The notes beneath the pieces were generated by a model, which worked only from the letters and a program-made list of their open reading frames with translations, ran no database searches and was not told where the DNA came from. 13,324 nucleotides of DNA from the IMG/VR virus record IMGVR_UViG_2695420744_000004, positions 1 through 13,324 of that record. One strand, 5' to 3'. Shown here in pieces: positions 8,307 to 11,905 of the stretch. Source of the DNA: a virus. Lineage: Duplodnaviria > Heunggongvirae > Uroviricota > Caudoviricetes. Numbering within the stretch: position 1 is the first letter of the stretch; every line of letters starts with the position of its first letter. Position numbers and translations under genes: made by a program.

Positions 8307-8517
8307 AAACGATTTGCGGGGAAAGGATAGTTAAGTAGAATTGCTGCGGGTGCTTGAGGCTATCTGTCTCAGGCATGAATACCAAAAGGCAGATAGAGAA
8401 AAGCCCCAGTTAACATTACGCGTCCTGCAAGACGCTTAACATTAATCTGAGGCTCAATCTATGAACGGCAAATCTAGGTTAGCCTCTTACGTGCCGAAAG
8501 GCAAGGAGAAGCAGGCT

Positions 8518-8673
8518 ATGAAGCAGCAAAAGGCGATGTTAATCGCCCTGATCGTCATCTGTTTAACCGTCATAGTGACGGCACTGGTAACGAGGAAAGA
8601 CCTCTGCGAGGTACGAATCCGAACCGGCCAGACGGAGGTCGCTGTCTTCACAGTTTACGAACCTGAGGAGTAA
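8518..8673 (+). CDS. hok: Hok/Gef-family type I toxin (51 aa), with in-frame upstream mok-like extension from 8461 (70 aa)
   Basis: MKQQKAMLIALIVICLTVIVTALVTRKDLCEVRIRTGQTEVAVFTVYEPEE is the Hok family signature and closest to HokD/RelF as I recall it. The 70-aa in-frame extension parallels mok. A long structured leader (8330-8460) lies upstream. Confidence 0.8.
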   Translation: MKQQKAMLIALIVICLTVIVTALVTRKDLCEVRIRTGQTEVAVFTVYEPEE

Positions 8674-8741
8674 GAGACCCGGCGAGGGAGAAATCCCTCG
8701 CCACCTCTGATGTGTCAGGCATCCTCAACGCACCCGCACGT

Positions 8742-8768
8742 AACCCGCTTCGGCGGGTTTTGTTTTTT
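8742..8768 (+). terminator. intrinsic terminator of the hok transcript (copy 1)
   Basis: AACCCGC-TTCG-GCGGGTT followed by TTTGTTTTTT. Confidence 0.7.
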
Positions 8769-8840
8769 CCTGGCATTCTGGTTTACAATTCGCACGCCAG
8801 CCTGAACAACTGGCACCTGCTGCGCCAGCAGAGACAACCG

Positions 8841-9119
8841 ATGGCGCACGATACCAAATTACACAATTCTGATGATTCTGCCGTCTTTGCCAGCAGGCAC
8901 GGGCGGCGTTCCCGCACTTTCAAATCTGACTGGTTCCAGCATCCCCCATGCACTGAAGAACAGGCCGAGTGGCTAATTCAGTGCTACCGCAGACACGGAT
9001 ACGAGATTAAGAAAGCCCTCAGCCTCGATTATCGTCACTGGATAATCTCCGTCAGGCTTCCTTACTCCGAACGCTCACCGCGTCCGTCCCGCACATTCCA
9101 GCAACGCATCTGGAGGTAA
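8841..9119 (+). CDS. small hypothetical protein (92 aa), Rem-like by synteny
   Basis: Start taken at ATG 8841 because the upstream part of the 135-aa ORF spans the terminator and is absent from copy 2. Stop TAA is followed 1 nt later by the GTG start of the DUF968 gene. Its position between hok and a ydfU-like gene mirrors hokD-rem-ydfU in Qin. Confidence 0.45.
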   Translation: MAHDTKLHNSDDSAVFASRHGRRSRTFKSDWFQHPPCTEEQAEWLIQCYRRHGYEIKKALSLDYRHWIISVRLPYSERSPRPSRTFQQRIWR

Positions 9120-9120
9120 C

Positions 9121-9834
9121 GTGCGAGTATTACTTCGACCTGTTCTGGTACCGGAACTCGGGCTGGTGATCGTTAAGCCGGGCCGTGAATCCATGCCGGT
9201 ATTCCACAATACCCGGGTACTGGTGGAGCCGGAACCGAAAAGCATGCGTAATCTGCCGTCCGGGGTCGTTCCTGCCGTTCGCCAGCCGCTGGTGGAAGAC
9301 AAAACATTGCTGCCGTTTTTCAGTAACGCACGGGTGATTCGTGCTGCTGGTGGTGCTGGTGCATTGTCTGACTGGCTGTTGCGCCATATTAAATCCTGCC
9401 AGTGGCCACACGGCGATTATCATCACAGCGAAACCGTCATTCACCGTTATGGTACCGGCGCAATGGTGTTGTGCTGGCACTGCGACAACCAGTTGCGTGA
9501 CCAGACCTCCGAATCACTTGAGCAACTTGCTCACCAAAACTTGTCAGCATGGATGATTGACGTCATTCGTCACGCAATGAATGGCACACAGGAGCGGGAA
9601 TTATCGCTGGCTGAATTATCCTGGTGGGCGGTCCGCAATCAGGTGGCGGACGCGCTACCGGAAGCGGTATTACGTCGTTCGCTGGGGTTGCGTGCGGAAA
9701 AAATCCGCTCAATGTACCGTGAAAGCGACATCGTACCGGGAGAGCAGACCGCCACCAGCATACTGAAACAGCGCACAAAAAATCTTGCGCCGCTGCCTCA
9801 CGCCCACCAGCAAAATGGTGTACTGGGATTATAA
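9121..9834 (+). pseudogene. DUF968 (YdfU-like) gene, 3'-truncated copy
   Basis: Nearly identical to the first 232 codons of the intact 351-aa copy at 10850..11905, then diverges at 9816 and stops after 6 unrelated codons. It lacks the C-terminal Cys/His-rich part. Confidence 0.6.
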
Positions 9835-10015
9835 CTGGCGCAAGCAGGGCGGCTCGTCCCGTATGATTGAAATCAGCAAGCGCGAAAAATTCTATCAGCA
9901 GGAATATTGTGGCTGTGTGTATTCTCTGCGCGATACCAATCTACACCGCAAATCTCAGGGACGCCCTCTTATCAAAATTGGCCAACTCCACTACGGAAAA
10001 GAAGAGAAGGAGTGA
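9816..10015 (+). pseudogene. 3' remnant of an unidentified gene at the junction between the two repeat copies
   Basis: The open frame reads …[64 protein letters not shown] with no plausible start or ribosome-binding site, and its 5' part would lie in the truncated DUF968 sequence. Identity not established. Confidence 0.3.
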
Positions 10016-10252
10016 TTTTATGGATCACCTTTCTGATTGATTTCATATTGGCGAGGTGACGTGAGTTAAGTAGAATGGCTGCGGGTGCTTGAGGCTATCT
10101 GTCTCAGGCATGAACACTGAAAGGCAGATAGAGAAAAGCCCCAGTTAACATTTCGCGTCCTGCAAGACGCTTAACATTAATCTGAGGCCCAATCTATGTC
10201 TCACAAATGTAGGTTAGCCTCTTACGTGCCGAAAGGCAAGGGGAAGCAGGCT

Positions 10253-10408
10253 ATGAAGCAGCAAAAGGCGATGTTAATCGCCCTGATCGTCATCTGTTTA
10301 ACCGTCATAGTGACGGCACTGGTAACGAGGAAAGACCTCTGCGAGGTACGACTCCGAACCGGCCAGACGGAGGTCGCTGTCTTCACAGCTTACGAACCTG
10401 AGGAGTAA
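10253..10408 (+). CDS. hok: Hok/Gef-family type I toxin, copy 2 (mok-like extension from 10196)
   Basis: MKQQKAMLIALIVICLTVIVTALVTRKDLCEVRLRTGQTEVAVFTAYEPEE; two amino-acid differences from copy 1. Confidence 0.8.
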   Translation: MKQQKAMLIALIVICLTVIVTALVTRKDLCEVRLRTGQTEVAVFTAYEPEE

Positions 10409-10476
10409 GAGACCTGGCGGGGGAGAAATCCCTCGCCACCTCTGATGTGTCAGGCATCCTCAACGCACCCGCACTT

Positions 10477-10504
10477 AACCCGCTTCGGCGGGTTTTGTTT
10501 TTTT
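10477..10504 (+). terminator. intrinsic terminator of the hok transcript (copy 2)
   Basis: AACCCGC-TTCG-GCGGGTT followed by a T-run. Confidence 0.7.
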
Positions 10505-10575
10505 CTGGCATTCTGGTTTACAATTCGCACGTCAGCCTGAACACCTGACACCTGCTGCGCCAGCAGAGAAAACAG

Positions 10576-10848
10576 ATGGCGCACAAAACCAAATTTCACA
10601 ATTCTGATACCGACCTTGCCATCCGGCATGGGCGGCGTTCACACGCATTTAAAACCGACTGGTACCAACACCCACCATGTACTGAAGAACAGGCCGAATG
10701 GCTAATTCATAACTACCGCAGACGCGGATACGAGATTAAGAAAGCCCTCAGCCTCGATTATCGTCACTGGATAATCTCCGTCAGGCTTCCTTACTCTGAA
10801 CGCCCACCGCGTCCGTCCCGCACATTCCAGCAACGCATCTGGAGGTAA
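10576..10848 (+). CDS. small hypothetical protein (90 aa), Rem-like by synteny, copy 2
   Basis: About 85% amino-acid identity to the 8841..9119 product by eye; coupled to the downstream DUF968 gene. Confidence 0.5.
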   Translation: MAHKTKFHNSDTDLAIRHGRRSHAFKTDWYQHPPCTEEQAEWLIHNYRRRGYEIKKALSLDYRHWIISVRLPYSERPPRPSRTFQQRIWR

Positions 10849-10849
10849 C

Positions 10850-11905
10850 GTGCGGGTATTACTTCGACCTGTTCTGGTACCGGAACTCGGGCTGGTGATC
10901 GTTAAGCCGGGCCGTGAATCCATGCCGGTATTCCACAATACCCGGGTACTGGTGGAGCCGGAACCGAAAAGCATGCGTAATCTGCCGTCCGGGGTCGTTC
11001 CTGCCGTTCGCCAGCCGCTGGCGGAGGATAAATCATTACTGCCATTTTTCAGCGACGAACGAGTGATTCGTGCTGCTGGTGGCGCTGGCGCATTGTCTGA
11101 CTGGTTACTGCGCCATGTTAAATCCTGCCAGTGGCCACACGGCGATTATCACCACAGTGAAACCGTCATTCACCGTTATGGTACCGGCGCAATGGTGTTG
11201 TGCTGGCACTGCGACAACCAGCTGCGCGACCAGACCTCCGAATCACTCGGGCAACTTGCTCACCAAAACCTGTCTGCATGGATGATTGACGTCATACGCC
11301 ATGCAATGAATGGCTCGCAGGAGCGGGAATTATCGCTGGCTGAATTATCCTGGTGGGCGGTCCGCAATCAGGTGGCGGACGCGCTACCGGAAGCGGTATT
11401 ACGTCGTTCGCTGGGGTTGCGTGCGGAAAAAATCCGCTCAATGTACCGTGAAAGCGACATCGTACCGGGAGAGCAGACCGCCACCAGCATACTGAAGCAG
11501 CGCACAAAAAATCTTGCGCCGCTGCCTCACGCCCACCAGCAAAACCCGCCACAGGAAAAGACGGTGGTCAGCATTGCCGTTGATCCGGAGTCACCGGCTC
11601 AGTATCTCCAGCGCCAGAAATCACAACGGGAAGAGATGCCTGTATACACGCGTTGGGTAAAAACGCAGAAATGCATGACGTGTGGCAATCAGGCAGATGA
11701 TCCGCATCACATCATTGGTCATGGACTGGGAGGGATGGGAACAAAGGCTGATGATTTGTTTGTTATTCCGCTGTGCCGTAAATGCCATAGCGAACTACAC
11801 GCCGGGGTAAAAGATTTTGAAGAAAAACACGGCAGCCAGCTGTTGTTGCTGATTCGTTTTTTAATGCACGCGAGAAATTCGGGTGTTCTGAAGTGGAAAG
11901 CATAA
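10850..11905 (+). CDS. DUF968-family protein (YdfU-like), intact copy
   Basis: 351 aa, GTG start after GGAGG. The C-terminus has a Cys/His-rich motif (CMTCGN…HHIIGHG…CRKCHSELH) suggestive of an HNH-like or zinc-binding fold. YdfU of Qin is of similar length (recalled). Confidence 0.65.
   Translation: MRVLLRPVLVPELGLVIVKPGRESMPVFHNTRVLVEPEPKSMRNLPSGVVPAVRQPLAEDKSLLPFFSDERVIRAAGGAGALSDWLLRHVKSCQWPHGDYHHSETVIHRYGTGAMVLCWHCDNQLRDQTSESLGQLAHQNLSAWMIDVIRHAMNGSQERELSLAELSWWAVRNQVADALPEAVLRRSLGLRAEKIRSMYRESDIVPGEQTATSILKQRTKNLAPLPHAHQQNPPQEKTVVSIAVDPESPAQYLQRQKSQREEMPVYTRWVKTQKCMTCGNQADDPHHIIGHGLGGMGTKADDLFVIPLCRKCHSELHAGVKDFEEKHGSQLLLLIRFLMHARNSGVLKWKA

Follow-up and report, generated by a model that had tools for sequence, protein, structure and literature searches.

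Two hok/sok loci in series at a probable unequal joint between two lambdoid prophage lineages of Escherichia coli

How does one prophage come to carry two hok/sok loci in series? The question is raised by a 13,324-nucleotide (nt) stretch of caudoviricete DNA, positions 1 to 13,324 of the IMG/VR record IMGVR_UViG_2695420744_000004, which we refer to as the window. Two colinear blocks in it, 8329-9815 and 10064-11544, each hold a hok leader, overlapping mok and hok frames, a terminator, a small gene for a protein of ~90 amino acids (aa) and a gene of the DUF968 family (Table 1). An earlier note on this DNA had described the blocks as a diverged tandem duplication with a truncated first copy and a foreign gene remnant at the junction, and had proposed recombination between the modules of two different lambdoid prophages. 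The window is probably a hybrid lambdoid (Rac/Qin-like) prophage that arose when two related phage genomes of E. coli underwent one illegitimate crossover or deletion.

The geometry of the repeat is clear. In a blastn search, 8329-9815 falls on the same stretch, 9250-10730, of a prophage of E. coli AR_0013 (L001) as 10064-11544 does, at 94.0% identity over 1487 columns, with 83 mismatches and one gap opening (2282 bits, E = 0). The self-alignment that had been proposed as a check reproduces the coordinates of the two copies exactly, and MAFFT finds them colinear from end to end. A separate alignment count yields 89 differing columns including a single 6-bp indel, which sits in the small gene; the many substitutions reported earlier are present, but the several indels reduce to this one. 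The copies are spaced 1735 and 1729 nt from start to start (repeat finder), the nonrepeated spacer 9816-10063 is 248 bp, and a weak similarity extends ~17 nt upstream of the repeat (8312 and 10047), spanning the hok -35 box. Identity is distributed unevenly: hok stands at 98.7% and the final 365 nt at 96.7%, but the part of mok outside hok only at 87.7% and the small gene at 87.8%. The longest blocks without any difference measure 179, 166 and 109 bp, the 179-bp block lying near the end of the repeat, and the copies are without differences from 9769 to 9815. At the protein level, identity is 91.4% for Mok, 82.6% for the small proteins (76/92, estimated earlier by eye as about 85%) and 97.0% for the shared 231 DUF968 residues; Hok-2 differs from Hok-1 by I34L and V46A, the two of 51 residues already counted from the sequence.

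Each arm of the window matches a separate prophage in which the module is single-copy, and it is this evidence that carries the hybrid interpretation. The left arm, which we call lineage A, is nearly identical to a prophage of E. coli 23CRST047 (L002), the best match to the whole window, where the order is hokD, a 279-nt hypothetical gene, DUF968 (1050 nt), RusA and DUF1133; window positions 8200-9813 are identical to L002. This arm contains dicF, relBE, the immunity and replication genes, open reading frames (ORFs) of the nin region, hok copy 1, small gene 1 and the first 231 codons of DUF968. The right arm, lineage B, contains the queH remnant, hok copy 2, small gene 2, the full DUF968 gene, rusA and Q. 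It is identical to L001, where the order is queH (666 nt), hokD, hypothetical, DUF968, rusA and Q, and it is also 100% identical to prophages of many other strains. For each copy, alleles that are 100% identical occur in many genomes, those of copy 1 including L002 and those of copy 2 including L001. When 9450-9815 was used as a query against complete E. coli genomes, the best-ranked matches were all 100% identical and all ended at 9813. The best matches to 8200-12000 among 5,426 complete E. coli genomes have the single-copy order QueH, HokD, hypothetical, DUF968 and RusA. Comparison with related prophages, also suggested in the earlier note, has therefore found the single-copy versions of both arms, and the proposed recombination between two lambdoid prophages is strongly supported. 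The phrase diverged tandem duplication fits the outcome but not the event, each copy being identical to alleles found in other genomes. To judge from these matches, the 6% divergence between the copies is the divergence between the two parent lineages.

At the joint the parental sequences share 0-1 nt. Lineage A reads CAGCAA/CAGAAC at the break, queH reads CCGGGT/ATGGTG and the window reads CAGCAAAATGGTG; base 9814 (A) matches neither the lineage A DUF968 gene nor queH. The copy 1 DUF968 frame continues into queH DNA in a frame other than that of queH and meets a stop six codons later. It had been correctly seen that this gene is cut at 9816 and followed by the 3' end of another gene, although the intervening stretch had been given as 249 rather than 248 bp. 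The supposition that the gene remnant was foreign and had its own donor does not survive. The remnant is 100% identical to L001 9001-9201, inside the annotated 666-nt queH, and it covers positions 133-174 of the 175 in the PF02677 QueH profile, so that a complete QueH domain is not present. In the copy 2 lineage queH lies directly upstream of hok, in L001 and likewise in L006, L009, L011, L049, L068 and L074. On the strength of these alignments, the remnant is the 3' end of the native upstream neighbor of copy 2, with 9815-13323 forming one uninterrupted piece. No third donor is needed because queH natively precedes hok in lineage B, and a third-party donor for 9816-10063 is ruled out by the contiguity of that stretch with copy 2 in the lineage B prophage.

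In the event that we favor, lineage A would have been broken after codon 231 of DUF968 and lineage B within queH, at codon 156, which on the phage map is ~1.7 kb left of the point equivalent to the break in lineage A. Such an unequal crossover would keep both blocks in the hybrid, the hok-small gene-DUF968' block of lineage A followed by the 'queH-hok-small gene-DUF968 block of lineage B, and the product would be a 1735-bp apparent tandem duplication whose copies are 6% apart. In the hybrid both small genes are intact, whereas of the two DUF968 genes one is intact and the other is without the HNH motif, and queH is a dead fragment. Lambdoid mosaicism consists of illegitimate recombination followed by selection, and the window is an ordinary product of it, not a new kind of element or system. 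The 1735-bp repeat is likely to be recombinationally unstable, and RecA-dependent deletion would be expected, because it contains identical blocks of 179 and 166 bp.

The hybrid arrangement is a singleton among the collections searched. A 200-bp junction query found nothing spanning the joint in the 5,426 complete E. coli genomes or in GenBank phages. The exact joint 30-mer and 22-mer are absent from the GTDB species representatives and the JGI metagenomes, the 30-mer has no second instance in IMG/VR, and the 237-aa fusion protein, with either V or M as first residue, has no exact record in the gene-position index. A singleton joint fits a recent, unstable structure. Several observations nevertheless weigh against the single-crossover origin. 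The arrangement lacks independent confirmation, the joint being found in no other searched collection. The chromosomal sites of the two best-matching parents are not the same in their own strains, L002 adjoining potC and L001 adjoining ompW, and the window is without an integrase or an attachment (att) site. A tandem lysogen at one att site could not be supported as the origin, given that the parental integration sites differ. Finally, base 9814 is accounted for by neither parent, and an origin in one step requires that a single base was untemplated or mutated.

That base is the point at which a two-step history does better. A tandem duplication within lineage B would come first, with its DUF968 sequence, ending in CAGCAAAA, joined to queH ATGGTG through 1 nt of microhomology; homologous recombination with a lineage A phage would then exchange all that lies left of ~9768-9813. 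The lineage B allele of DUF968 (copy 2, CAGCAAAAC) matches copy 1 through 9815 and so explains base 9814 without an untemplated nucleotide, the copies are identical over 9769-9815, and of the top-ranking matches from complete E. coli genomes the 100%-identical ones end at 9813 and none reaches 9815. However, two events are needed, the second crossover is confined to the 45-bp interval 9769-9813, and none of the collections contains a tandem intermediate made of lineage B alone, since neither the 22-mer nor the 30-mer across the joint occurs in them. The two-step history is less parsimonious than a single crossover, and we regard it as unlikely.

We consider it similarly improbable that the source organism has both prophages separately and that a chimeric read or a mis-join during library construction or assembly made the joint. 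The singleton status of the joint is what such an artefact would give, as are flanks that are perfect or near-perfect copies of prophages existing separately elsewhere; moreover, many E. coli genomes are multicopy for the module, with a median of 2 places per genome and up to 11. Yet mis-joins at repeats switch within shared homology and leave a single hybrid copy, whereas here the switch has at most 1 nt of homology and lies between a DUF968 codon and a queH codon, so that only a chimeric molecule could produce it as an artefact. Two independent contigs, L003 and L073, also have serial arrangements, with joints of their own. A tandem duplication of one ancestral module in place, with later divergence of its copies, which would account for the head-to-tail colinear geometry and the truncated first unit, is effectively refuted by the two perfect external matches, since after 6% divergence neither copy should equal an external allele, and it fits neither the flanks from two different lineages nor the uneven divergence (98.7% in hok, 87.8% in the small gene, 179 bp identical), which is typical of mosaic alleles rather than clock-like decay.

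The single unequal crossover can be placed in the context of 80 IMG/VR loci that encode close relatives of the DUF968 protein. The module is a mosaic across these loci, the allele identities of its parts varying independently: queH is directly upstream of hok in a minority, and the distance from hok to the small gene ranges from ~70 nt to >2 kb. Two of the 80 contigs, L003 and L073, have two DUF968-rusA blocks in series. In L073 (1114-7057), hok, 83-aa, 92-aa, DUF968, rusA and 273-aa genes are followed by a 5'-truncated DUF968 gene, rusA and Q; L003 (1919-7255) has similar serial blocks in which the second DUF968 is fused to the upstream ORF (403 aa). Like the window, each of these contigs has a pair of serial nin-region blocks that contain DUF968 and belong to different lineages. 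Unlike the window, they have rusA and a Q-type gene in the duplicated span, hok is not duplicated, and the second DUF968 gene is the one that is 5'-truncated or fused. Unequal joins therefore recur in the nin/Q region, because these two contigs carry serial blocks with different joints.

Comparisons of HK97 and HK022 by Hendrix and colleagues reportedly gave rise to the illegitimate-recombination model of novel joints. The joint in the window resembles such lambdoid joints in its sharp switch of lineage without homology, its position inside nin-region genes and its flanks, which are near-identical to other phages. Most surviving novel joints lie at gene boundaries and conserve gene content. 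The one described here is instead unequal, with ~1.7 kb duplicated and two broken genes left behind, and it looks recent and not yet tidied up.

Many lambdoid prophages of E. coli have a full-length queH of 221 aa directly upstream of hok, among them L001 (8536-9201), the other queH-hok loci named above and L035 and L037. Phage-borne QueH is a curious cargo gene because E. coli K-12 uses QueG for epoxyqueuosine reduction.

Table 1. Coordinates of the parental arms, the joint, and the hok/sok, small and DUF968 genes in the window
Feature	Coordinates	Strand	Description
Left arm, lineage A	1..9813	+	99.969% identity (3 mismatches, 0 gaps) to E. coli 23CRST047 prophage, L002 3001-12813
Right arm, lineage B	9815..13323	+	100.000% identity over 3509 bp to E. 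coli AR_0013 prophage, L001 9001-12509
Novel joint	9813..9816	.	lineage A DUF968 match ends at 9813; queH match starts at 9815
queH 3' remnant	9815..10015	+	codons 156-221 of 221 plus stop; pseudogene fragment
hok-1 promoter (putative)	8313..8341	+	-35 TTTGCG 8313-8318, -10 TAGAAT 8336-8341; read from the sequence, homologous to copy 2 promoter
hok-1 mRNA	8348..8768	+	leader 8348-8523; tac 8348-8359 pairs with fbi 8723-8735
mok-1 (70 aa)	8461..8673	+	overlaps in-frame hok-1 8518-8673 (51 aa); ORF list; PF01848 Hok/Gef 77.3 bits
hok-1 intrinsic terminator	8742..8769	+	7-bp stem then T run; terminator scan (8742-8759)
sok-1 (predicted)	8396..8504	-	putative -35 TTGCCT 8504-8499, -10 TAACCT 8481-8476, 17-nt spacing; RNA ~8469 to ~8396
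Small gene, copy 1 (92 aa)	8841..9119	+	phrog_1212, E = 4.5e-35
Truncated DUF968/YdfU-like gene, copy 1	9121..9834	+	231 native codons, 6 out-of-frame queH codons (NGVLGL), stop
hok-2 promoter	10048..10076	+	TTGGCG, 17-nt spacer, TAGAAT; promoter scan
hok-2 mRNA	10083..10503	+	leader 10083-10258; tac 10083-10094 pairs with fbi 10458-10470
mok-2 (70 aa)	10196..10408	+	overlaps in-frame hok-2 10253-10408 (51 aa); PF01848 79.3 bits
hok-2 terminator	10477-10494	+	terminator scan
sok-2 (predicted)	10131..10239	-	promoter 10239-10211; RNA ~10204 to ~10131
Small gene, copy 2 (90 aa)	10576..10848	+	phrog_1212, E = 2.2e-36
Full DUF968/YdfU-like gene, copy 2 (351 aa)	10850..11905	+	C-terminal HNH/His-Me finger

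Searches of Rfam, Pfam and PHROG and the terminator scan agree on the gene content that the earlier note had read for each copy. The leaders match the full Rfam RF01794 model (positions 1-157) at 112.4 bits in copy 1 and 120.5 bits in copy 2, against a gathering score of 59, and the Hok/Gef matches lie well above the PF01848 cut-off of 22 bits; matches to the NCBIfam Hok families score under their curated cut-off. The putative hok-1 promoter lies a few nucleotides upstream of 8348, where the Rfam leader starts, and this position is consistent with its assignment. Predicted minimum-free-energy folds of both hok mRNAs contain the tac/fbi pairing of the 5' and 3' ends, which is typical of hok-family mRNAs. 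The putative minus-strand sok promoters were not flagged by a simple promoter scan, and they were placed by homology to R1 sok. The predicted Sok RNAs are 74 nt long, a single-stranded 5' tail of 9 nt preceding a long terminator hairpin and a U run, and their length agrees with the 71-nt complementarity of sokW (PMC8621323). With a Hok/Gef ORF, a mok frame, a leader and predicted tac/fbi pairing at each locus, both have the sequence-level hallmarks of the hok/sok family, and they appear to be complete type I toxin-antitoxin loci of the hok/mok/sok kind, each in the immediate surroundings native to it.

The closest characterized relative is hokW-sokW of the Stx2 prophage Sp5 in E. coli O157:H7 Sakai (Takada et al. 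2021, PMC8621323). It is likewise a lambdoid-prophage locus with a 51-aa Hok, its antisense RNA, which has ~71 nt of complementarity to the 5' leader, resembles the predicted Sok RNAs, and the published hokW primers, in the leader and at the 3' end, match the window sequence at ~90%. It has been shown experimentally to be a toxin-antitoxin system of type I, both the toxicity of Hok and its neutralization by Sok having been shown in this relative (PMC8621323). Sp5 has one locus, whereas the window has two allelic loci 1735 bp apart with different predicted Sok 5' tails. The hok/sok (parB) locus of plasmid R1 has the architecture that is read or predicted in the window, with tac/fbi pairing, an overlapping mok and a Sok RNA whose single-stranded 5' tail recognizes a hairpin at the mok start (PMC1635323). 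It differs in residing on a plasmid, whereas the loci described here are in a prophage nin region and their Hok sequence has diverged; HokW is 44% identical to R1 Hok (PMC8621323). By analogy, both loci would be expected to work like hokW-sokW and R1 hok/sok, with the Sok 5' tail pairing with the mok translation-initiation hairpin of the hok mRNA. Photorhabdus luminescens also has more than one hok/sok locus close together, in the form of three clustered loci (Faridani et al. 2006, PMC1635323), but those clusters are chromosomal and in another genus, and the pair in the window probably comes from a traceable phage-phage join.

In three IMG/VR contigs the hok locus is split near locus position 176-191: L030 (2761-4281), L040 (525-4281) and L045 (894-4648). 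The split point lies around the hok Shine-Dalgarno sequence and the sok promoter, and the halves are 1.1-3.3 kb apart, which suggests insertions disrupting hok/sok at one recurrent spot. In the window, a putative ORF for a 27-aa hydrophobic peptide (8224-8306, plus strand) overlaps the stop codon of the 7882-8226 gene and ends ~10 nt before the -35 box of hok-1.

The differences between the two hok/sok loci are concentrated where Sok would be expected to recognize its target. Six of the 19 differences between the copies in the 442-nt hok locus fall in 11 nt (8464-8474; simulated P ~3e-4). These bases make up mok codons 2-5 and, read on the opposite strand, positions 2-6 of the Sok RNA as predicted; predicted sok-2 differs from sok-1 at RNA positions 2-6, 16 and 52. 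Among 50 unique hok alleles, the 12 nt starting at 8464 are the most variable internal stretch, with an entropy of 0.98 bits versus a mean of 0.18 bits. At least 14 hairpin/loop alleles occur among 59 loci, within loci otherwise 95-99% identical; the copy 1 tail allele is the commonest (19 loci) and the copy 2 allele ties for second (7 loci). In R1, the 11-nt Sok 5' tail is the recognition element, and it is through this tail that Sok first touches a loop of the refolded hok mRNA (PMC1635323). Predicted duplexes of the 12-nt tails have energies of -21.0 and -19.8 kcal/mol for the cognate pairs and -5.8 and -9.2 kcal/mol for the noncognate pairs. Because the tails differ at 5 of the first 6-7 nt, each Sok may protect mainly against its own hok mRNA, and the two antitoxin RNAs may not cross-protect.

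We tentatively extend this to a proposal that has perhaps one chance in three of being right: the two loci would be orthogonal specificity types, with the Sok 5' tail and its target loop as a hypervariable specificity determinant in prophage hok/sok. Two considerations count against it. The remaining ~60 nt of Sok are nearly identical between the copies, so slower cross-pairing is possible, and the transcript ends and duplex energies from which orthogonality is argued are all predictions. A covariation test on the target hairpin over 14 alleles (RNAalifold) spoke neither for nor against it: only a 5-bp basal stem is kept, and the named 14-pair hairpin is 81.5% paired, shows no double-sided changes and is not above shuffled alignments.

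The small gene matches only PHROG_1212, a family of unknown function; it has no match in Pfam or NCBIfam, and a search of PDB sequences was empty. It is not rem: in PPompW_EH2201, where the order is gef(hok), rem, a 279-nt hypothetical gene, ydfU, rusA and Q, a separate rem lies between hok and the equivalent gene, and it is this 279-nt gene that the small gene matches in position. A published description of DUF968 proteins has them combining a DNA-binding domain like that of Orf with a fused HNH nuclease motif (PMC4118853). The copy 2 protein matches PF06147 at 215 bits (profile positions 1-169 of 171), PF16784 HNHc_6 at 30 bits and the whole of phrog_96, annotated 'HNH endonuclease' (E = 8e-167, positions 1-334 of 334); HNH families match its residues 256-331. 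The truncated copy 1 protein covers only positions 1-61 of 171 in PF06147 and 1-222 of 334 in phrog_96, and the C-terminal HNH/His-Me motif is missing. Its N-terminal 134 aa match phrog_11007, and because that profile has just 134 positions, the N-terminal part of DUF968 may also exist as a separate protein. The search of PDB sequences with DUF968 returned only YbcO, a nonsignificant match (E = 0.49), and NCBIfam has no name for the small gene, DUF968 or the queH stub.

At the left end of the window (11-62, minus strand) is a gene for the small RNA DicF, a full-length match to Rfam RF00039 at 76.7 bits (gathering score 48), and dicB lies just past the left end in the matching prophages L001 and L002; the dicF and dicB context therefore identifies a Rac/Qin-like (dicB-dicF) lambdoid prophage. 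On the minus strand, a RelE/ParE-family toxin gene (1336-1617) and a RelB antitoxin gene (1617-1808 or 1871), as annotated in L002, adjoin a repressor-like helix-turn-helix gene (1838-2245). This relBE would be the third toxin-antitoxin module in the 13-kb window, beside the two hok/sok loci. A 35-nt inverted repeat, 80% complementary (1242-1276 and 2288-2322, arms 1011 nt apart), flanks the relBE-repressor block, and its arms could be the operators on the left and right of the immunity region. Two clusters of direct repeats of 10 nt (3239-3288 and 3531-3570; ATGTCACGnc type, with five overlapping copies in a 30-nt register) lie inside a replication-initiator-like gene (3107-4153), annotated in L002 as a DnaT-like single-stranded DNA-binding protein, and look like origin iterons.

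The main value of the window is as a clean, dated-looking case of lambdoid mosaicism arising, in which both parents can be named with base-level precision, the joint interrupts two genes, and what was left over, a queH stub and a truncated DUF968 gene, is still in place. It brings no change to the accepted roles of hok/sok, DUF968 or QueH. Of wider interest is that the hok/sok alleles differ exactly where Sok is expected to recognize its target. If the two loci were orthogonal, a resident Sok could not disarm an incoming hok, co-resident or recombining lambdoid prophages would keep independent addiction or lysis-timing modules, and the hybrid would carry two independently controlled toxins rather than a redundant pair. 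If confirmed, the two loci would provide a natural pair for the study of antisense antitoxin specificity, and would suggest a diversification of specificity among prophage type I toxin-antitoxin systems.

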